Source: a virus. From it: a stretch of 64,000 nt of DNA. Under the pieces are notes generated by a model that ran no database searches, had not been told where the DNA came from, and was given only the letters and a program-made list of their open reading frames with translations. How positions within the stretch are numbered: the first letter of the stretch is position 1; every line of letters begins with the position of its first letter. The DNA lies in IMG/VR virus record IMGVR_UViG_3300009149_000019, positions 20,003 to 84,002 of that record. One strand, given 5' to 3'. The translations under genes and the position numbers were made by a program. Shown piece after piece: positions 9,380 to 61,500 of the stretch.

Positions 9380-9973
9380 ATGCACAGTAGATTGTATTAT
9401 ATGATGGAGCATGCCGTAAAGGACAACATAATCGATTTTGAAGAGTTTTATGAGGATGATGCCTCCATATTTGATGTGGCACAACACAGTCCTATATGTT
9501 CTGGTATTGACTATGTAGCAGAACCAGATAATTTAGAGGAGGATATGTCTTATGTCCATGATAACATTTTTGGATCATTGTCAAAAGTAGAACATGGGGT
9601 TTTACGTATTCCGCCTGTGGCTATGGAGTTCTATGTGGACAAGGTAAAGTGGGTACCGGTGGAAACAGCACGTAAGAGCTTTGAAGAGTTGACCTCATTG
9701 TATGCACGGTTAGTTAACGGCAACTATGTAAATGGCGGAGCAGGGGGTGTTTTATACCATTTTAAGCAAGAACTCTCTATTATGCGTTATAACGGAGCCC
9801 CTTCTCTGGAATGGGCAGGTTCCTCTTTCGGAGATTTCGTGGTTACTACATTAGCTAGGCCCTACCTAACCATCTATGATTCATTTATGGTTAAGGCCCT
9901 CTTTATTGACCACCTGGCAACTAAACCAGCTACAGTATTTTCAATAATACAGATTTTTGACTATCACTGTTAA
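9380..9973 (+). CDS. Hypothetical protein
   Basis: 197-aa ORF in operon; ends FDYHC. Confidence 0.7.
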   Translation: MHSRLYYMMEHAVKDNIIDFEEFYEDDASIFDVAQHSPICSGIDYVAEPDNLEEDMSYVHDNIFGSLSKVEHGVLRIPPVAMEFYVDKVKWVPVETARKSFEELTSLYARLVNGNYVNGGAGGVLYHFKQELSIMRYNGAPSLEWAGSSFGDFVVTTLARPYLTIYDSFMVKALFIDHLATKPATVFSIIQIFDYHC

Positions 9974-9981
9974 AGGAGTGC

Positions 9982-10602
9982 TTGATGCTGAACCTTATGT
10001 CACATGGATGTATGAGAAAGGATCAAGAGGAGCCCTTTGACTTTAGCACATTACAGGATCTTGGTATAGCTGCTAAGTTGGGAAGACTGGAGCCTTTTCT
10101 TTCTTTTTCCACAGATGCGCTGGTGTCTAGCTATCAAAAAAGCGCAGCTCATATGCTGTTGTGTGTGGCTGCGACTAATGGAAACACACAGGTGGTCTCA
10201 CACTTACTTAATAGTGGAGTAGGCCCAAAGTCTAGGGACTGTTCCCCTTTTGTACACGAAGGTGGCTTGTCACCGTTAGCTCGAGCGCTCATCTTTGACC
10301 AGGACGCGTGTGCTCTTGTTTTAGCAAGAGCGGGGGCGTGGCTAGATGACTACGATATTTTACTTGGAAGCTGCCCACTGCTTGTGCTAGTGTCTAGGTT
10401 CCCTACTGATGACTGCTATAGGTATGCTGATTACTTATTCGGAAATGTGGATAGTGCTCTAAAGTCGTTGTCTATCTCAGGTCGAGATGACACCGTCAGG
10501 ATGGCAGCAATCGCAGTCCTACAGAGAAAAACTGTGGCCAACCACCACGCAAGGAGGTTTAATGGCTCGAAAACTCATCATCCTCTTCCAAAAACCATCT
10601 GA
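9982..10602 (+). CDS. Ankyrin-repeat-like protein
   Basis: LLCVAATNGNTQVVSHLLNSG; GLSPLARAL..CALVLARAGA. Confidence 0.65.
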   Translation: MMLNLMSHGCMRKDQEEPFDFSTLQDLGIAAKLGRLEPFLSFSTDALVSSYQKSAAHMLLCVAATNGNTQVVSHLLNSGVGPKSRDCSPFVHEGGLSPLARALIFDQDACALVLARAGAWLDDYDILLGSCPLLVLVSRFPTDDCYRYADYLFGNVDSALKSLSISGRDDTVRMAAIAVLQRKTVANHHARRFNGSKTHHPLPKTI

Positions 10603-10762
10603 GAAATTATCTGGATGGTCAGTCGTGTTAGGGTTCTGGAAAAAAGGTAAGCGCCCTGAGTTCATAACATGGGAGAGGAAGGATATTGATGACACTCTGT
10701 ATTCTGGTCATTACTACGCAGAGCTTCCAGCGGCTTACGCTGATTTTAAGAAAAGGAGGTGA
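10562..10762 (+). CDS. Small hypothetical protein
   Basis: AAGGAGG SD before ATG 10562 (track starts at 10487). Confidence 0.6.
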   Translation: MARKLIILFQKPSEKLSGWSVVLGFWKKGKRPEFITWERKDIDDTLYSGHYYAELPAAYADFKKRR

Positions 10763-10837
10763 TTGTTGGCACAGTGAAGATATATAACCAACCACTAACT
10801 ATGAGGTACTAGTGCGTCTGTTCGTTCAGTTACAAAG

Positions 10838-11473
10838 ATGAGGAAACCAATGAAATTAAAGGGGTTCAAACGAAAGCTAAAACAAAACAGATTAACAGCC
10901 GGCAATGTAAAGCTGTCGAAGAAAATTCTGATCTTTAATCTTCCTTCTGGTAAGCAAGGTACTTGTCCAATTACCTGTAATAGCTGCTATTCTCTAAGAA
11001 CTGAGAAGAGGTGGCCTAATGTTAAGGTATGGAGGAATGAGAATCTGCAGCTTGCCAAACATAATCTACCCGTGTTAGAAGAGTGTGTACACGGGCAGTT
11101 GTACAGGTCAAGGAAGAGTATTGTCAGAATTCATGAGGGTGGGGACTTCTTCTCTCAGCCATATCTGGACATGTGGTCTGGAATAGCAACTTCTTTTCCT
11201 GATAACCGTTTCTATGCCTACACAAAAACCTTAGAGTTGTTTAACTTCTCTAGGTTCTCAATCCTTCCAAACGTTAACATAATTAATAGCCATATTGAGG
11301 GTAACATTAATTATGGAAGTCTGAACTATTGTAATAGCCTTGTGGAAGAGTATGGAGCGTTTCTCTGTCCAGCAACCTTAGATAAGCACCTGGGCAGAAA
11401 GAGGAAAACTGTATGTGGAGAAGATTGTACCTACTGTATAACAGAGGCAGCTCCAGTGTTCTTGAAACATTAA
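10838..11473 (+). CDS. Phage Gp88-like protein (radical-SAM-related fold)
   Basis: FNLPSG..TCPITCNSCY, RIHEGGDFFS, FYAYTK, C-terminal CP..CGEDCTYC. Confidence 0.7.
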   Translation: MRKPMKLKGFKRKLKQNRLTAGNVKLSKKILIFNLPSGKQGTCPITCNSCYSLRTEKRWPNVKVWRNENLQLAKHNLPVLEECVHGQLYRSRKSIVRIHEGGDFFSQPYLDMWSGIATSFPDNRFYAYTKTLELFNFSRFSILPNVNIINSHIEGNINYGSLNYCNSLVEEYGAFLCPATLDKHLGRKRKTVCGEDCTYCITEAAPVFLKH

Positions 11474-11525
11474 TAATTTAGCAGGGGGGTGGTTATGTAT
11501 GACACTCCCCTCCTTTGGAGGATTC

Positions 11526-11696
11526 ATGTGTAAAAAGGATGATATCGTTTCCATAGTGAGTGAGATACAGATAGAAGAGAAGGAATGGGTTGATAAGAAA
11601 GTGGACTGTGCCCTAAGAGAAATGGCGAAGAGAAGGACCCCATTGTGGAAAAGGGCTCTATATTTTATGGGGAAGCTGGTGAGAAAAAAAGAGTAG
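11526..11696 (+). CDS. Small hypothetical protein
   Basis: GGAGG SD before ATG 11526. Confidence 0.5.
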   Translation: MCKKDDIVSIVSEIQIEEKEWVDKKVDCALREMAKRRTPLWKRALYFMGKLVRKKE

Positions 11697-11751
11697 CTTT
11701 TTCCTGTTGTATGGAGTATCCTAAGTGGCACATTACTTTGGAGGATCTTCT

Positions 11752-12735
11752 ATGACATTATGGCACTTGGCTGACATCCACTTCGGAAAGGTGAAACAGG
11801 AAACGATTGAGGACTTCTATAAAGTTACTGATGGGTTAGATAACCCAGATAAAATTATAATAGCCGGAGATCTGTTTCACTCATCTTACTATTTTGAGGA
11901 TGAGACTACCAGGAATGTTCTTTTCTTTGTGGATTACCTTCTATCCAAGTGTCCTGACGTATCTTTTACTAAAGGAACACACTCCCACGACAGGAGTAAC
12001 CTTCTTACATTAAAAGATATATTCAAGGACAGGATTGAGGTGTATCAGTCACCAACAGATGAGGGAGGCTTTTGCTTTGTACCAGAGCCAACAATTAATA
12101 CAATTGAGGAGACCATAAAGATGATCTCCAGTACAGATGCTCCTCATCTTGTTTATCACGGCGACATTGAATCTGCTAAATACCCTTCAGGTGTTAACGC
12201 AGAGGATAAAAGCAGCTGCTTCTTACGTAAGTCCTTGTTTAAGAAGTTTGCACTAGTGATGGCTGGGCACATACACAGCAACCAGCGTCTAAAAGGAACC
12301 AGTATTTATTACACAGGATCCCTGGGAAGGTTTCAGTTTGGTGAAGAGGAGGACAAAGGTTTTTACGTTCATTCTCTTGTAAAGGAGAAATGGGCAAGTG
12401 TGTTTATTCCTGTGAAGTCTCCAGCGTATAAAACATACGGGGTAGAAAATGATACCGAACTTGAGGCGCTCATAGCATCTCTTGATAATGAAGAACCGGT
12501 TCGTGTTTTAATGTCAAAGTCCAGACAGAAGACACTAACTATTCCAAAGTTTGTAAGTATAGAGGCGAACATCGATAGGACACCGGTCACGTCAAGTAAA
12601 ATACAGGAACTTGCCGCATCGGATAAGCCGATGTACGATAAGGTGATTACTTACATAGAAGAGAAGATGCAGCTAGAGACCAATGAGATTTTAAAAAAAG
12701 AACTCTCTACCGTGCTTAAGCATGTTGGTGTCTAG
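11752..12735 (+). CDS. sbcD: SbcD/Mre11-like nuclease (metallophosphoesterase)
   Basis: LADIHFG, AGDLFH, KGTHSHD, YHGD, AGHIH, YTGSLGRFQFGEEEDKG; GGAGG SD. Confidence 0.85.
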   Translation: MTLWHLADIHFGKVKQETIEDFYKVTDGLDNPDKIIIAGDLFHSSYYFEDETTRNVLFFVDYLLSKCPDVSFTKGTHSHDRSNLLTLKDIFKDRIEVYQSPTDEGGFCFVPEPTINTIEETIKMISSTDAPHLVYHGDIESAKYPSGVNAEDKSSCFLRKSLFKKFALVMAGHIHSNQRLKGTSIYYTGSLGRFQFGEEEDKGFYVHSLVKEKWASVFIPVKSPAYKTYGVENDTELEALIASLDNEEPVRVLMSKSRQKTLTIPKFVSIEANIDRTPVTSSKIQELAASDKPMYDKVITYIEEKMQLETNEILKKELSTVLKHVGV

Positions 12736-36258: not shown

Positions 36259-36984
36259 ATGAAAGCGATTTATTTTACTCGTGGGAGGGCAAAAGAATAC
36301 TGTGAGTGCGCCATTAACATCTATACTGGTTGTGATCATGGCTGCACGTATTGCTATGGTGCGTCCGTCCTTCATATGACACGAGAAAAGTTTGCTAACC
36401 CTGTTACCAGGAATAATCTTATAAACAGTATAAAAAAAGAAGCTCCTGCATTTAAGGGCAAGGAGGTTCAGTTATGCTTTGTCACGGATCCCTATCAGGT
36501 ATTTGATCAGGAGGTTAGACTGACAAGGGAAGTTATTGAGGTTCTCCATGAAAGTGGAGTTAAGGTATCTATTTTGACAAAAGGTGGGAACAGAAGTCTG
36601 GTTGACTTCGATCTCTTTGAGAAGAATCCATCTTTATCTAAATATGGAACTACCCTGACCTTTCTGGATGAAGCTAAATCATTGGAATGGGAACCAGGGG
36701 CAGCACCTCCTGAGGAACGCATAAACGCCCTTCAGAAGGCAAAAGAGATCGGAGTGGAGACTTGGGTCAGTCTGGAGCCAGTTCTCGATCCACAGGCTGT
36801 ATACTCAATAATAGAGAGAACACACACCTTCGTGGATATGTTCAAGGTAGGAACCTGGAATTATCATGAGGACGCCAAGAAGATTGACTGGAAACTTTTT
36901 GGTACAACTGCTAAAGAACTAATGGATCATTTGGGATGTAACTACTATCTCAAAAATGATCTGGTAGAGAAGATGAACGGTTAA
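36259..36984 (+). CDS. Radical SAM protein (spore-photoproduct-lyase-like family)
   Basis: NIYTGCDHGCTYCY, TDPYQ, ILTK, WEPGA.PP.ERI, WVSLEP. Confidence 0.85.
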   Translation: MKAIYFTRGRAKEYCECAINIYTGCDHGCTYCYGASVLHMTREKFANPVTRNNLINSIKKEAPAFKGKEVQLCFVTDPYQVFDQEVRLTREVIEVLHESGVKVSILTKGGNRSLVDFDLFEKNPSLSKYGTTLTFLDEAKSLEWEPGAAPPEERINALQKAKEIGVETWVSLEPVLDPQAVYSIIERTHTFVDMFKVGTWNYHEDAKKIDWKLFGTTAKELMDHLGCNYYLKNDLVEKMNG

Positions 36985-48448: not shown

Positions 48449-49468
48449 ATGTCAACTACTGTTACGTGTATACCTTACTACACGTTAATTAATAAAGTAA
48501 AAGAGCTGGGAAACTATGGGGTTCGGGCTTTCTTAAAGGAGTGCCCGGACCCAGCAAAGGTAATTAACGCCCTAGTACCATCAAGGCGCTCTGTTATGGC
48601 GTTTGTCGCTGGAAAGGGTGACATCGAGATGATGGACACCCTGGTGGAGTTTGGTGGGGATCTAAACATAGAGAGAACACGACCAACGAAAAGCAAAAAC
48701 ACGCCTCTCATGGTAGCTATTATTGAAAAACAAAATCATATGATTACGTACCTCCTTAAGAAGGGAGCAGACCCAACACTTACAAATGCCAATGGCATCT
48801 CTCCGTTGCTACTAGCAGTTAGGAGACACAACCGGGGCATTGTAGAGCTTCTCCTTTCTTATGGGGCTGATCCAAACGTTCAGCATGCCAAGCTGTCGTT
48901 TTCCCCACTCAATCAGGCTATCTCTTCCTTTAGGGAGGATATCGTTTCTGTTTTATTAAAAGCAGGCGCTAATCCTACTGCTCCTGACAGAGATGGGTTT
49001 GCTCCTATACATATTGCCTGCAACTGTGGAATGCTTGCGGTTGTACGCTCTCTTGTAGATAGAGGTGCACCAATTGATGTAATGACTAGAATGGGGTACT
49101 CTTCTTTTTATTACGCTTGTGTGTCCGCTATGAGAAAGCATTATAGATCTAATTTCTGTAAGAAGGGCTTTGACGTCAGAGAGGCTATTGACTTTTTTAT
49201 GAGTAACGGGTATCCGGTCTTCAGGGATATTAGTAACCCTAAGTATGAGTTGCTATCAGAAGCCTTTTGTGGTGGTACGGCCTCTCTGATAATAAAGCAG
49301 TATCTTACAGACGCACGGCTTAAACGTCTACTTTTAAATAAGGTAGCACTTAAAATGTCAGAAGAAAATGAAAAATTAATACGGGAGGTTCTCATTGGAG
49401 GAAAACGAAAACAAGAACCCCATGGTCCAGATAGACATGAAAAATCCTCTGGGGTGGGGAAACATTGA
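48449..49468 (+). CDS. Ankyrin-repeat protein with C-terminal box
   Basis: NTPLMVAI..YLLKKGADP, SPLLLAV..LLLSYGADPN, LLKAGANP, APIHIAC; LTDARLKRLLLNK..EKLIREVL. Confidence 0.9.
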   Translation: MSTTVTCIPYYTLINKVKELGNYGVRAFLKECPDPAKVINALVPSRRSVMAFVAGKGDIEMMDTLVEFGGDLNIERTRPTKSKNTPLMVAIIEKQNHMITYLLKKGADPTLTNANGISPLLLAVRRHNRGIVELLLSYGADPNVQHAKLSFSPLNQAISSFREDIVSVLLKAGANPTAPDRDGFAPIHIACNCGMLAVVRSLVDRGAPIDVMTRMGYSSFYYACVSAMRKHYRSNFCKKGFDVREAIDFFMSNGYPVFRDISNPKYELLSEAFCGGTASLIIKQYLTDARLKRLLLNKVALKMSEENEKLIREVLIGGKRKQEPHGPDRHEKSSGVGKH

Positions 49469-52874: not shown

Positions 52875-53076
52875 GATACTTGGGAGACCACACAGTGTAG
52901 ATCTTTCTCTGCTTGAAGACAGAGAGGATCTTGAGATCATGGTAGTTTTCCACGATGGAACAGCTAACAACCACACCCCCAGGGTGGAGGTGTGGGATGA
53001 TGTTAGTGGTATCGTGGGCCCTACCGTAGTAAATGAGTTCTTTTCTAAGAGCTCTGAACAACTCCAGGAGGTGTAA
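52852..53076 (+). CDS. Small hypothetical protein
   Basis: 74 aa, TAATG-coupled to next gene. Confidence 0.55.
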   Translation: MNNKLVIEILGRPHSVDLSLLEDREDLEIMVVFHDGTANNHTPRVEVWDDVSGIVGPTVVNEFFSKSSEQLQEV

Positions 53077-53669
53077 TGGGAACTAGGGGCGTATTCGGAT
53101 TTCAGGTAGGAAACCAACTAAAGGTTACCTACAACCACTTTTCTTCCGATCCAGGTGGGTTAGGAGAGGAAGTGCTGTCTTTTTGTAAGCACCATGACCT
53201 TGATACAATGAAAAAGATGGCAAGTGCTATTGAGCTCGTTGACTCAGACGTAGCTCCCACCCATGAGCAAATTGTGCGATGTAGGGAGGCAGGCACCATT
53301 GATCTAGGGGTCTCTGAGCAATCGGAGACTGATTGGTACTGTCTTTTACGTGATGCCCAAGGAGACCTTAATAAGGTAACTGAGGTAGGAATAATGATAG
53401 ATAGTCAGTCCTTTCTCAGTGACTCTTTGTTTTGTGAATGGGCCTACATCATAAATCTTGACAACAGTACTCTGGAAGTTTACTCTGGGTTTAATGAAAA
53501 GCCAGCGGTGGGGCGTTTTGAAAAATCCCCACCTAATGATGGTGGCTACTACCCTGTTACTCTTATTGCCACTCTTGATCTAACTAAAGAGGTCATGGGG
53601 GGAACCTTACACCAGGCATTGGACATACTGGGAGTACTAGAAAAAGAAGAAGAGGAAGAAGAGGAGTAA
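53076..53669 (+). CDS. Conserved-looking phage hypothetical protein
   Basis: MGTRG..YNH..SDP.GLG, DSLFCEWAYIINLD; AGGAGG SD. Confidence 0.7.
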   Translation: MGTRGVFGFQVGNQLKVTYNHFSSDPGGLGEEVLSFCKHHDLDTMKKMASAIELVDSDVAPTHEQIVRCREAGTIDLGVSEQSETDWYCLLRDAQGDLNKVTEVGIMIDSQSFLSDSLFCEWAYIINLDNSTLEVYSGFNEKPAVGRFEKSPPNDGGYYPVTLIATLDLTKEVMGGTLHQALDILGVLEKEEEEEEE

Positions 53670-53671
53670 AC

Positions 53672-53848
53672 ATGCCTATTTTCGATTACGTATGTGACAA
53701 GTGTGAGAAGGAGTTTGAGCTCCTTGTTGGAGTTGTAGACTCTGAAACAACACTAAAGTGCCCTCATTGTGGGGCATCTACCATTACCAAGAAGATAACT
53801 TCCGGGAAATTTGTTAAGCCATACACGTTTCGCGGGAAGACCTGGTAA
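53672..53848 (+). CDS. FmdB-family zinc-ribbon protein (absent from ORF track, 58 aa)
   Basis: Translated by hand: MPIFDYVCDKCEKEFELLV...KCPHCGAS; GAGGAG SD. Confidence 0.85.
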   Translation: MPIFDYVCDKCEKEFELLVGVVDSETTLKCPHCGASTITKKITSGKFVKPYTFRGKTW

Positions 53849-54260: not shown

Positions 54261-54289
54261 TTGACATATACATATGAGTATGGCATACT
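54261..54289 (+). promoter_or_regulatory. sigma70-type promoter upstream of NSSS-leader array
   Basis: TTGACA-N17-CATACT with TGn extension. Confidence 0.6.
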
Positions 54290-54501
54290 GCACATCCTAT
54301 ATTATGTTAATCTATCCAATATTGGATAGTAAGGAGCACGTTGTGTGTTACAAATGTGAACACGCTGTGAAGGTCAGATTACTAAAGACACTGGAACTAT
54401 ACATAGTTTGTCAGGTGATGACTGATTCTTCAATTGGAACGGATTTAGTGCAGTGTGCTGGGGAAAAGCGCTGTCCTGTTAGAAATCAAAAAGTAAGTTA
54501 A
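54274..54501 (+). CDS. Small Cys-rich protein (true start probably near 54340, after AAGGAG)
   Basis: CYKC..C..C..CP. Confidence 0.45.
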   Translation: MSMAYCTSYIMLIYPILDSKEHVVCYKCEHAVKVRLLKTLELYIVCQVMTDSSIGTDLVQCAGEKRCPVRNQKVS

Positions 54502-54526: not shown

Positions 54527-54964
54527 ATGAAAATCAGAACTGGGTTCGTTGCGAACTCAAGTAGTTCTTCATTTATAGTTATGTATGCAAATCTGGAAAA
54601 GGTACGTTCTTCCAGACTGAAACGGGCATTACTGGATAATTCCAAGGCAGCTCAATGTGTTAAAGAGTATATTATGGAAGAGTTAGAGGGTAGAGATAAA
54701 GACAATGATGATCCTGCTATATACACTACTGACTTTATTAGTGTGACTCTTATAAATATACAGGAGTGCTATGGTGGAGAGCTCTGTGAATATACTCATG
54801 CTGATCCTGATGATGACGACAGTTGTGATTGTTCTTGTGAGATAACGGTGCTGGACTGGGATGACCGTAACAAATTGGAAGACTGGTCAAACCGTTTTGA
54901 TCCTCAGTACATTATAATTGATGAGTACCGCAAAGGGGAGATGTCACCATATGAAAATACGTAA
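54527..54964 (+). CDS. NSSS-leader family protein 1 (with box)
   Basis: MKIRTGFVANSSSSSF; RSSRLKRALLDN..VKEYIMEELEGR. Confidence 0.8.
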   Translation: MKIRTGFVANSSSSSFIVMYANLEKVRSSRLKRALLDNSKAAQCVKEYIMEELEGRDKDNDDPAIYTTDFISVTLINIQECYGGELCEYTHADPDDDDSCDCSCEITVLDWDDRNKLEDWSNRFDPQYIIIDEYRKGEMSPYENT

Positions 54965-55355
54965 TGGATTCGTTTCCAACTCAAGCAGTTCTTCATTTGT
55001 GATAGTACGATCAAATCTACAAAGAATAACAGACTCCAGGATAAAGCAGCTTTTATTACATAGTGGGCTTCCTGTCCTAGTAAAAGATCAGTGCCGAAAG
55101 GAGCTCCTTCTTAGGGATACAGGAAAAGTAAGAGCTATCCATCAAGATGAATCTTTTGTATGTTCTATTGTGGAAGAGACTGAAGATGACTATACCGACA
55201 ACAGCATTCCAGAAACAATCACGTTGTTTACTATAGGATTTCCTGCTAGTAACATACCACCCAGCATGCGGCTAGGCAGGCATTTTGATGAATTTGATGA
55301 CATCGATTTTGAGAATAACCATTCTCCAGAATTTATCTTTGAGGAGGACCTATGA
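54951..55355 (+). CDS. NSSS-leader family protein 2 (with box)
   Basis: MKIRNGFVSNSSSSSF at ATG 54951; TDSRIKQLLLHSGLPVLVKDQCRKELLLR. Confidence 0.8.
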   Translation: MKIRNGFVSNSSSSSFVIVRSNLQRITDSRIKQLLLHSGLPVLVKDQCRKELLLRDTGKVRAIHQDESFVCSIVEETEDDYTDNSIPETITLFTIGFPASNIPPSMRLGRHFDEFDDIDFENNHSPEFIFEEDL

Positions 55356-55687
55356 AGGTAAGATTTGGTTTTGTGGCTAACTCTAGCTCTCAGGACTTTG
55401 TCCTACACAATCGTAGGATGACTCAGAGTAAACATAGCATTGATGTAGAGCACAACCTTGGTGATCTAAAGAGTCCCGTATTAAAGAGATTGTTACTTGA
55501 GGATATTCCTGAGGAAGTAAAGGTGGTTATACTCAAAGAGTTTGAGAACAGGAAAGGAAAGTCGGACGATGGCTATGATGATTCTCCTGTGGAGGTTGTT
55601 GTCGTTGAGAGGTCCATGTGCTATGATAGCCATGGTCAGGAAACCTTTGAGGAAGAAGTTATTTATTCGTACCAGGAAATTATTTAG
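55352..55687 (+). CDS. NSSS-leader family protein 3 (with box)
   Basis: MKVRFGFVANSSSQDF; KSPVLKRLLLEDIPEEVKVVILKEFENR. Confidence 0.8.
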   Translation: MKVRFGFVANSSSQDFVLHNRRMTQSKHSIDVEHNLGDLKSPVLKRLLLEDIPEEVKVVILKEFENRKGKSDDGYDDSPVEVVVVERSMCYDSHGQETFEEEVIYSYQEII

Positions 55688-55695
55688 GAGGTATT

Positions 55696-56385
55696 ATGAA
55701 AGTACGTAACGGGTTTGTATCCAATTCAAGCAGCTCCAGTTTTATAATGGGTAATAGTACAACAGCGTCTGCTATGTATGATCTAATACGAGCAGTGCTT
55801 CGTGATTGCGAGATTTATTTTAACCCAGTCTCAACGTCTGACTATAATTTTATCAGAACGTTTGAGTCTGAATACGAGATCCTTACATGGCTTTCTCAGA
55901 ACTTAGATTGTGACGAACCGCTGCTCTTTAGTGGCACATGTAACTATGAAACGTTCATGATTAAGGACAAGAGCACCGGAAGAATCTTAGTAGACACGTG
56001 TAACAACCATGATTGGACTGGCCTTGACATCATCAACCATAATGATGACGATAACGATGGTACACACCAAAGATACCAGGGTTACGAGGCGAAATATAAG
56101 GATGAGCATTGTGAATTTGGTCCCTGTTCTTCCTGTGAGGAGGCTGAGTGCCCTGACCATATCCAGGACATGGTAGATGGGGATGAAAAAGACCTCGATC
56201 ATCCAAAATACAGGGTTATCTACATAGACGTAAGGACGAGGGCACGTGAGACGGAAGCACTGTATTTCTTTAAGAAATATGCTCATATGGGTTTCTATGA
56301 CAAGATCCCAGGAACAAACAAACCGTGGTCCATAGAGATCCTTGAGCTGCTTGCTCAGGGTGTAGCACAAGAGGAATTTTTATGA
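55696..56385 (+). CDS. NSSS-leader family protein 4
   Basis: MKVRNGFVSNSSSSSF. Confidence 0.8.
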   Translation: MKVRNGFVSNSSSSSFIMGNSTTASAMYDLIRAVLRDCEIYFNPVSTSDYNFIRTFESEYEILTWLSQNLDCDEPLLFSGTCNYETFMIKDKSTGRILVDTCNNHDWTGLDIINHNDDDNDGTHQRYQGYEAKYKDEHCEFGPCSSCEEAECPDHIQDMVDGDEKDLDHPKYRVIYIDVRTRARETEALYFFKKYAHMGFYDKIPGTNKPWSIEILELLAQGVAQEEFL

Positions 56386-56711
56386 AAATTCGTAATGGCT
56401 TCGTTTCCAACTCAAGCAGTTCTTCTTTCGTGGTTCCTACAGCCATGTTATCCCCTTTGCAAATTTGGGCAGTCTTAACAAATACACAAACAGATCAAGA
56501 GTACACCAGGCCAATTTGGGAGATTGGTCTGATTGATGGTTACCTGGTCGGGTATACAAGTATGGACAACTATGATATGATAGAGTTCTTAAAGAAGGTT
56601 GGGATTCCTTCCAAAGACATCAGTGGGACTGACCGTTTCTACGGAAGTCTTGAGAGCACATTAGAGTGGTATAAGGATGAAATACTTAATAATCCGAATA
56701 GGAAAGAGTAA
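56382..56711 (+). CDS. NSSS-leader family protein 5
   Basis: MKIRNGFVSNSSSSSF. Confidence 0.8.
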   Translation: MKIRNGFVSNSSSSSFVVPTAMLSPLQIWAVLTNTQTDQEYTRPIWEIGLIDGYLVGYTSMDNYDMIEFLKKVGIPSKDISGTDRFYGSLESTLEWYKDEILNNPNRKE

Positions 56712-60567: not shown

Positions 60568-61184
60568 AAAAAAGTGCTCTTATTATTGTTGATCCGCAGA
60601 AAGATTTCTGTCCTGGAGGAGCTCTACCGCTTCCTGGAGGGAATGAGATAGCCAGTTATATTCTTGGTCACCTGTTTCACTACCCATTTGATCTTATGAT
60701 CGTTAGCAGAGACTGGCATCCGAAAGACCACACGTCTTTCAAAGTTGATGGGTGTGATGAGAGAGGTATATGGCCACCACACTGTATACAGGGAACATCT
60801 GGGGCTGCCTTATTGTTTATCCCACCTTACAATGTTCTTCTTGCTACAAAGGGAGATAACCCTTATGAACACCCGTATCCTGCTATGAAGGCCCATATGG
60901 ATGATGCGCCTGATACCATGGTTCCGTCTCTTCTAAAAAGTAAGAAGATTGACTCTGTTTTTGTTGGTGGTCTTGCACTTGACTTTTGTGTTAAGGATAC
61001 GGTCCTTGATCTACTAAAAGAAGGATATGAGACATTCTTGATGCTTGATGCCTGTCGTGGACTCGGCCATGCTACAATGACTGATGCTGTACGTGAGATG
61101 GTTGAGGCTGGTGCTAAGCTAACTTATATCAAGAACGTAGAGCAACTTGTGAAGTCGAGACGGAAAGATGACAGTCCTGGGTAA
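60564..61184 (+). CDS. pncA: Nicotinamidase/pyrazinamidase (isochorismatase family)
   Basis: IVDPQKDFCPGGAL, DWHP..H.SF, WPPHCIQGT.GA, TKG, GLALDFCV. Confidence 0.9.
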   Translation: MKKSALIIVDPQKDFCPGGALPLPGGNEIASYILGHLFHYPFDLMIVSRDWHPKDHTSFKVDGCDERGIWPPHCIQGTSGAALLFIPPYNVLLATKGDNPYEHPYPAMKAHMDDAPDTMVPSLLKSKKIDSVFVGGLALDFCVKDTVLDLLKEGYETFLMLDACRGLGHATMTDAVREMVEAGAKLTYIKNVEQLVKSRRKDDSPG

Positions 61185-61500
61185 CCACATAAATATAAGT
61201 GACATTGAAGAATTCTTGTGTACTTATTACTGCGATCCACTCACTGTTGAGCAATGCACTTGTCTGGGGGATAAGTGGCGTCATCTTAACATGTCCTTTT
61301 ACGCCACCAGTGCTCATACTAGAATGTCTGTAGATGAGCTAAACATGGAGACTGCAAAACTACTGGAATCCGTTATACCAGGATCAATAGTAAAGAGACT
61401 CTTACTAGATAATAGAGTAAGTAACCTCTACCTTCGTGATATACTTACCAAGGCTCTCACCTGTAACAAAGATATAATTAAAGTAGCTATCATAATGTGA
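61168..61500 (+). CDS. Hypothetical protein with C-terminal box
   Basis: PGSIVKRLLLDNRVSNLYLRDILTKAL. Confidence 0.7.
   Translation: MTVLGNHINISDIEEFLCTYYCDPLTVEQCTCLGDKWRHLNMSFYATSAHTRMSVDELNMETAKLLESVIPGSIVKRLLLDNRVSNLYLRDILTKALTCNKDIIKVAIIM

Follow-up and report, generated by a model that had tools for sequence, protein, structure and literature searches.

Radical S-adenosylmethionine (SAM) enzymes with a SPASM domain that adjoin protein families with a conserved peptide are usually the maturases of those proteins. In systems producing ribosomally synthesized and post-translationally modified peptides (RiPPs) of the SkfB, SuiB/StrB and CteB type, a single maturase, of the radical SAM/SPASM or twitch type, handles several precursors with a common leader. 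The anaerobic sulfatase-maturating enzyme (anSME), also a radical SAM/SPASM protein, acts on a Ser or Cys in a short motif, and one enzyme serves many sulfatase clients. Short shared N-terminal peptides are also found in the internal proteins of phage T4, which have a common capsid-targeting sequence cleaved by the prohead protease and bodies that are hypervariable and often anti-defence; a capsid-targeting peptide of this type ends in a prohead-protease site (hydrophobic-x-Glu), and the proteins that carry it are present in virions. In bacteria, the KpAvs2 operon of Klebsiella pneumoniae encodes Avs2 together with Avap1, a radical SAM protein, and Avap2, a small protein linked to DUF6375 by HHpred; Avap1 is required against some phages, and the roles of Avap1 and Avap2 were left unexplained (Bechon et al., 2024, PMC11564622). 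Here we analyzed a stretch of 64,000 nucleotides (nt), hereafter the window, which covers positions 20,003-84,002 of the 84-kb IMG/VR phage record IMGVR_UViG_3300009149_000019 and contains five tandem genes (m1 to m5) that share a short N-terminal peptide, hereafter the tag, followed by variable acidic bodies.

Linkage of the tag to a radical SAM/SPASM enzyme

The array consists of five open reading frames (ORFs) on the plus strand between 54527 and 56711, each of which opens with M-K-[IV]-R-x-G-F-V-[SA]-N-S-S-S and continues with SSF or QDF. The starts and N-terminal peptides given for these ORFs in the first-pass annotation were all correct, and a six-frame scan of the window placed the pattern at these five ORF starts only. 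A sixth tagged gene, m0, was identified outside the window (G000:C1:16968-17438) when phrog_7397 was searched against the whole record. Its ATG overlaps, as TAATG and behind a GGAG...GGAGG stretch, the stop codon of a plus-strand radical SAM/SPASM gene (G000:C1:15880-16968) whose 362-aa product belongs to phrog_7293 (E 2.8e-70), a family without an assigned function. The enzyme gene and m0 lie ~37 kb upstream of the array, in the same record and on the same strand.

We found that the genes for the tag and for this enzyme family are linked across unrelated phages, whichever of the two is used to retrieve the loci. When 50 phage loci were fetched by the tag, mostly from contigs of 50-550 kb, 48 contained 1-11 tagged ORFs, on one strand throughout and mostly in tandem, and ~37 of the 50 encoded a full-length homolog of the enzyme on the same strand (35-54% identity). 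Clustering of all ORFs in these loci identified the enzyme as the only conserved family besides the tagged genes, with 33 non-redundant loci vs. 6 for the next family. The reverse test started from the best 80 of 179 IMG/VR relatives of the enzyme found by alignment search: 74 of these 80 loci had a strict tag within 10 kb of the enzyme gene, and every strict-tag ORF near the enzyme (272 of 272) was on its strand. In four of the six loci lacking a strict tag, the tags are variants, with the sequence NSSTSSF or a His in position 7, which brings the tagged total to 78 of 80. A test for co-occurrence with radical SAM genes had been proposed in the first-pass annotation, which named, as the outcome that would speak against its proposals, a shared known fold without such a signal; what we observed is a two-way signal.

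The same annotation had suggested that the tag might be the substrate of a radical SAM enzyme, such as the products of the window genes at 36259 or 10838. The link to a radical SAM enzyme is supported by the co-occurrence; the partner, however, is the phrog_7293 protein, whose gene is outside the window. We rejected both of the genes suggested earlier: the product of 36259-36984 is a second radical SAM protein of 241 aa, with weak DUF5131 similarity and no SPASM domain, that has only the cluster motif in common with the tag-linked family, and 10838 encodes a GP88-family protein.

The phrog_7293 enzyme scored 21.5 bits against the Pfam SPASM model, exactly the cut-off, and 18.6 bits against Radical_SAM, under the cut-off of 29.5. 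In an alignment of the family, C50, C54 and C57-Y-K are invariant around a variable first loop (Cx3-15CxxC), as are four C-terminal cysteines (C242, C267, C286, and C342), and the enzyme looks intact, with its cluster motif and putative auxiliary-cluster cysteines in place. Among PDB sequences it has weak matches to SkfB (E 3.5e-4), BtrN and SuiB, and the sole NCBIfam match is TIGR04317, a radical SAM maturase of a tungsten-cofactor oxidoreductase, at 16 bits against a cut-off of 380. In this genome the enzyme gene and m0 separate two genes that usually adjoin each other, one for a MoxR-like AAA protein and one for a DUF2201_N peptidase/vWA protein (L001:14620-18949); this nesting was not a general feature of the other loci. 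Both neighbors were rejected as general partners, as they recur in 2 and 1 of the 50 tag-fetched loci, respectively. At two related phage loci (L023:6513-9122 and L047:4680-6761), an extra ORF (152 aa or 275 aa) divides the radical SAM/SPASM gene into two ORFs, which could reflect an intron or a homing-endonuclease insertion.

At locus L095, all four tags have His instead of Phe at position 7 (G-H-V-S-N-S-S), a result reached in none of 2000 shuffles. This concerted, lineage-specific change is one event and hence no more than suggestive; the variant could serve in a search for compensating changes in the enzyme. The tagged genes of L095 are at 9493-12200, and the tags of L097 are identical.

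The system is widespread. A profile of m0-type proteins matched 6418 protein-cluster representatives at E <=1e-3 and 676 at E <=1e-30, with viral hypothetical proteins as the neighbors in Atlas, and FVSNSSSS stretches were counted 584 times in IMG/VR. In 185,579 prokaryote genomes, the only confirmed tagged contigs were ten from metagenome-assembled genomes, with a phage-like pattern. Among cultured phages, the enzyme was found in 172 records of T4-like phages (hosts Klebsiella, Enterobacter, Cronobacter, Citrobacter and Escherichia) and an m0-type client was found in 175, with near-identical genus tallies for the two. A tblastn search of m0 against cultured phages gave no match, and the family was found there by way of phrog_7397 and phage GAP161. 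Because cultured phages of E. coli and Klebsiella (RB43, RB16, KP15, and GAP161) have both parts, the system is directly testable at the bench. In GAP161, the two tagged genes, GAP161_111, a full match to phrog_7397 (E 6.9e-119), and GAP161_106, share a strand with the enzyme gene, GAP161_155, at a distance of 20-24 kb; around them are small hypothetical ORFs and a gene for a DNA methyltransferase, with no head genes.

The pair also occurs in a bacterial setting. On plasmid pAt2 of Agrobacterium tumefaciens (NZ_CP048524.1), a STAND gene, a tagged gene and an enzyme gene are adjacent on one strand as a three-gene operon (L144:3590-8026). The STAND protein is of the SMEK/NACHT, Avs2-like kind (PADLOC Avs2 models, E 8e-27), the tagged protein has 131 aa and starts with MKIKLDFVSNSSSTSF, and the radical SAM/SPASM enzyme shares 31% identity with that of the phage. 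Close to this operon is a gene for a site-specific integrase.

These distributions bear on one alternative, in which the tag has nothing to do with the enzyme and instead serves in sorting or assembly, bringing cargo into the capsid or a common assembly as the capsid-targeting sequence of T4 internal proteins does. A tandem array in which one short N-terminal peptide precedes hypervariable bodies does resemble T4 internal-protein loci, and the Ser/Asn-rich stretch, with a hydrophobic strand after it, could join a beta-sheet. However, a sorting signal leaves the near-obligate linkage to one enzyme family unexplained, and the pair is also found in a STAND operon, where there is no capsid. The GAP161 tagged genes, moreover, are not among head genes, and the tag has no Glu and no Glu-type prohead-protease site of the kind in which the T4 sequence ends. 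We consider this explanation quite unlikely.

The conserved tag and its variable bodies

Tag statistics were obtained from 360 unique tagged proteins from ~130 loci. Their consensus is M K [IVT] R x G F V S N S S S [S>T,A,C] S F [IV] [IV], in which R4 and N10 are invariant despite a search pattern that admitted K and D. Nearly as constant are K2 (355 of 360), S9 (354), G6 (351), S15 (345), V8 (340) and F16 (337), while positions 3 and 5 vary freely and conservation drops sharply past residue 18.

The tag is under selection at the protein level. Over the first 16 codons of the six copies in this genome, 157 codon differences comprised 120 synonymous and 37 non-synonymous ones, in agreement with an earlier remark that many of the differences between leaders are synonymous. 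The nucleotide identity of the leaders is 67.8%, Arg is encoded by AGG, AGA or CGT, and both TCN and AGY codons are used for Ser13 and Ser15; it is therefore the peptide, rather than the DNA, that is conserved. The conserved 48 nt might alternatively act as DNA or RNA, either as a translation-initiation element or as the recombination handle for cassette shuffling that had been proposed from the sequence, and their fixed place at each gene start and an exact run of 26 nt between m2 and m5 would suit such a role. In most pairs, however, exact runs measure 5-12 nt, and the codon data contradict a DNA-level function, which we regard as extremely improbable.

Two other known roles for short N-terminal sequences or Gly-containing motifs were rejected. 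A glycyl-radical site (R-V-x-G-[FWY]) has its Arg three residues before the Gly and the tag has it two residues before; Gly6 is replaced in 9 of the 360 proteins, and a partner with a SPASM-type C-terminal domain also counts against an activase of the PflA type. A Sec-type signal peptide was rejected because the tag has no long hydrophobic core.

In contrast to the tag, the bodies are highly diverse. The 360 proteins fell into 109 BLAST clusters, 73 of them singletons, and profile-profile comparison of body families with the tag removed gave probabilities of at most 1.4%. The largest cluster (47 members, about one per locus) contains m0 and the second largest (35 members) contains m5; neither type is universal, as they occur at 28 and 26 of the 80 enzyme-anchored loci, respectively. 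The m0-type proteins have ~165 aa, an invariant tag and a C-terminal Y-S-D-N-D-G ... L-E-H-G ... H signature. Tagged clients have a median length of 132 aa (range 60-280 aa), and their bodies are acidic, with a median isoelectric point (pI) of 4.61 and 85% below 5.5, vs. a median of 6.50 and 34% below 5.5 for the other, size-matched ORFs of these loci. No Pfam, NCBIfam or PADLOC family matched the tagged proteins, and a word-indexed search with the m5 body alone returned only the query itself.

In AlphaFold models of m0 and m5 (predicted local distance difference test scores of 78 and 81), the bodies are alpha/beta sandwiches that look ferredoxin-like and are mutually unrelated. In both, residues 1-10 score below 50, the remainder is modeled with confidence, and strand 1 starts at about residue 14. 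Searches with the m0-type model found nothing at E <=1e-3 in PDB and BFVD (Foldseek) and a best Z of 3.0 in a VIA-wide fold search; the m5 model reached Z 6.6 with designed ferredoxin folds, and this match of a predicted structure is to a generic arrangement that offers no functional lead. A beta-strand assembly signal, as suggested earlier for the shared peptide, is compatible with the models, in which the first strand of each body is predicted at residues ~13-19.

In another alternative, the leader is no more than a conserved strand 1 in a single, very divergent family, and the radical SAM gene is a neighbor inherited by descent. The placement of residues ~14-19 in strand 1 of ferredoxin-like bodies in both models is what this explanation would predict. 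It does not account for residues 1-10, the most invariant part of the tag, which are outside the fold in both models, and common descent sits poorly with the lack of profile similarity between bodies, with the absence of any other conserved gene near the pair in unrelated phage contexts, and with the presence of the pair in bacteria too. We therefore think that an ordinary first strand is a very unlikely explanation.

The five genes of the array are packed as in an operon and translationally coupled, with a 14-nt overlap between m1 and m2, ATGA overlaps between m2 and m3 and between m4 and m5, and an 8-nt gap between m3 and m4; their bodies are acidic (pI 4.3-4.9). The first gene, m1 (54527..54964, plus strand), encodes 145 aa with the tag MKIRTGFVANSSSSSF and a pI of 4.3, and relatives of its body were found within this phage only (m3 and m2). 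It is followed on the same strand by m2 (54951..55355), which encodes 134 aa from the ATG at 54951, preceded by GGGGAG, with the tag MKIRNGFVSNSSSSSF and a pI of 4.8; its body was a singleton among the 360 tagged proteins. The product of m3 (55352..55687, plus strand; 111 aa, pI 4.9) has the variant tag MKVRFGFVANSSSQDF, a degenerate form (NSSSQDF) in which S14Q and S15D are rare variants. The last two genes have bodies that recur elsewhere: m4 (55696..56385, plus strand; 229 aa) belongs to a subfamily with CNY(D/E)T...(S/T)CNNH motifs that has ten unique members across other phage loci, and m5 (56382..56711, plus strand; 109 aa) to the second-largest body subfamily (W.I...G.T.MDNFDM..FL..IGV). 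All 119 relatives retrieved with m5 have the tag, in 116 of them at the extreme N-terminus.

The bodies of the array had been described as unrelated. This is true of m4 and m5, which could not be aligned; without the tag, however, m1 matches m3 (E 3e-5) and m2 (E 2e-3), and judged from these alignments the bodies of m1, m2 and m3, which were found in this phage only, are weakly related local paralogs. A helical box ([LIV]-K-[RQ]-x-L-L) noted in the first three genes as a separate module is indeed there, at 54617, 55041 and 55481, but it belongs to the paralogous stretch that these genes share. The same box is also present at 49319-49350, in the C-terminal tail of an ankyrin protein (48449-49468), and at 61390-61420, in a 110-aa ORF (61168-61500); outside the box, BLAST found no significant similarity among the ankyrin protein, the 110-aa ORF and m1-m3. 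Compared with the 170-position phrog_7397 profile, m0 matched over positions 1-63 (E 1.8e-10), while m1-m5 gave no full-length match and aligned only over positions 1-18 to 1-47 (E 1.7e-4 to 0.098), with the match of m1 restricted to positions 1-22. At the sequence level, then, the five window genes have the tag alone in common with this family.

Upstream of the array, a consensus scan identified a promoter-like site on the plus strand (54261..54289; TTGACA-17-CATACT, with a TG before the -10 hexamer as in an extended -10), 238 nt 5′ of m1. The TTGACA promoter reported previously thus exists as a site, but promoter-like sites in the region are not enriched (10 vs. 10.4 expected from shuffles). 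Between this site and m1 there is a putative coding ORF of 75 aa (54274-54501) that contains Cys and has no tag. Further 5′, the region 53076-53848 encodes a 197-aa protein of phrog_30528 (E 2.6e-34) with a poly-Glu tail at its end and a 58-aa Zn_ribbon_8 protein (E 5.4e-14). The window as a whole has ~42% G+C and a steadily rising GC skew, and near-identical DNA is present in subsurface and soil metagenomes, with no RNA data set among the public runs listed for it.

A proposed role for the tag

The data fit a module of two parts, one radical SAM/SPASM enzyme and a portable tag on many unrelated small acidic proteins. In our view the tag is probably the recognition and modification site of the phrog_7293 enzyme. 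The five array genes would then be clients of the enzyme encoded ~37 kb upstream, with the 16-mer M-K-[IVT]-R-x-G-F-V-S-N-S-S-S-S-S-F serving as the portable element. Its first ~ten residues would form a free tail that is recognized, and probably covalently modified, by the enzyme, and its Ser-Ser-Phe-[IV]-[IV] end would continue into the first beta-strand of whatever body follows. A modification site is favored by the fixed position of the tag at the extreme N-terminus of the m5 relatives, by the predicted exposure of the tail, and by the Asn-Ser-Ser-Ser core, which is without variation. The bodies themselves would most likely be effectors acting on host proteins, in takeover or counter-defence, a role suggested by their acidity and fast divergence and by the counterpart in a STAND operon.

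Alternatively, the tag may be a docking element, and the tagged proteins interchangeable adaptor or specificity subunits that bring different targets (host proteins, nucleic acids or small molecules) to one catalytic core. The co-occurrence of tag and enzyme is compatible with docking as well, and one invariant tag with diverse bodies would suit a set of adaptors. In addition, Avap2 of the KpAvs2 operon physically binds its STAND partner (PMC11564622). On the other hand, a fixed N-terminal place and an invariant Ser/Asn run resemble a site of chemistry more than a generic interface, and the general rule that SPASM enzymes beside peptide-sharing families are maturases also speaks against docking. 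We infer that the tag is a substrate rather than a docking element only, and we regard the docking explanation as unlikely.

Several observations weigh against modification of the tag by the enzyme. The co-occurrence fits a substrate and a docking partner alike, and in the cultured phages it amounts to a single evolutionary observation, since they belong to one T4-like lineage. Five of the six tagged genes in this genome are ~37 kb from the enzyme gene, so the enzyme could act on their products only in trans. Strand 1 is predicted to bury residues 13-19, where a modification would have to precede folding. In the tag-fetched loci, no RiPP-style peptidase, transporter or recognizable RiPP recognition element (RRE) domain is conserved with the pair; CheckV estimates the 84-kb record to be 33% complete, and other partners could therefore be missing from it. 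Complex prediction from alignments of the enzyme and m0-type clients scored 0.27, with the mark at 0.32; it gave no verdict and was not used either way.

A broader proposal, which we advance tentatively and hold to be possible rather than probable, is that the tag carries a new radical SAM modification that matures or arms more than 100 unrelated families of small acidic effectors, and that phages and Avs2-type STAND systems share this chemistry on opposite sides of their conflict. Phage tagged proteins could in that case mimic or block the tagged adaptor of a STAND sensor. We found neither the motif nor the pairing of tag and enzyme in the literature searched, and a search for phage radical SAM/SPASM systems likewise returned nothing relevant. 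If the tag is a radical SAM modification site, the system would be a widespread viral route of protein maturation for which we found no describing paper. Its chemistry would be new among radical SAM reactions on proteins, and the tag would make it simple to recognize, from sequence, a large class of phage effectors that otherwise escape annotation. It would also provide a handle on the unexplained Avap1 and Avap2 accessory genes of Avs2 immunity (PMC11564622). Distinctive in this genome are the distance of ~37 kb between array and enzyme, the coupled m0, the degenerate tag of m3 and the three phage-specific bodies.

Comparison with described systems

The bacterial counterpart on pAt2 has the same architecture as the KpAvs2 operon, with a STAND gene, a gene for a small protein and a radical SAM gene; Avap2 is a candidate member of the tagged family only. 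The phage differs in having no STAND gene and many tagged proteins instead of one. It also differs with respect to the match reported for Avap2: in profile searches, PF19902 (DUF6375) matched neither the five array proteins (E <=1) nor 41 m0-type proteins (E <=0.1), and it found nothing across the whole record (E <=10).

The phage module resembles RiPP systems in combining a radical SAM enzyme that has a Cys-rich C-terminal auxiliary domain with multiple genes that share an N-terminal peptide and vary in the rest. It is not a canonical RiPP cluster, however, as no other family is conserved near the pair, and the clients, with their median of 132 aa, are predicted to be folded proteins of 60-280 aa, whereas RiPP precursors are short peptides. 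The pair is moreover phage-encoded and has no accompanying peptidase, transporter or recognizable RRE. Since the tag is the only conserved part of the clients, a modification would have to sit in the "leader" and not, as in RiPPs, in the variable core. As with anSME, one enzyme would serve many clients and act on Ser/Cys in a short conserved motif of otherwise complete proteins. The system is nevertheless distinct from the anSME-sulfatase system: the clients are not sulfatases, the (C/S)-x-(P/A)-x-R motif is missing from the tag, the NCBIfam matches of the enzyme include no anSME model, and the phage enzyme has only four invariant C-terminal cysteines. With the T4 internal proteins, finally, the array shares tandem phage genes, one short N-terminal peptide and hypervariable bodies; the T4 sequence has no radical SAM partner, whereas the tag described here is tied to such an enzyme and is found in bacteria as well as in phages.

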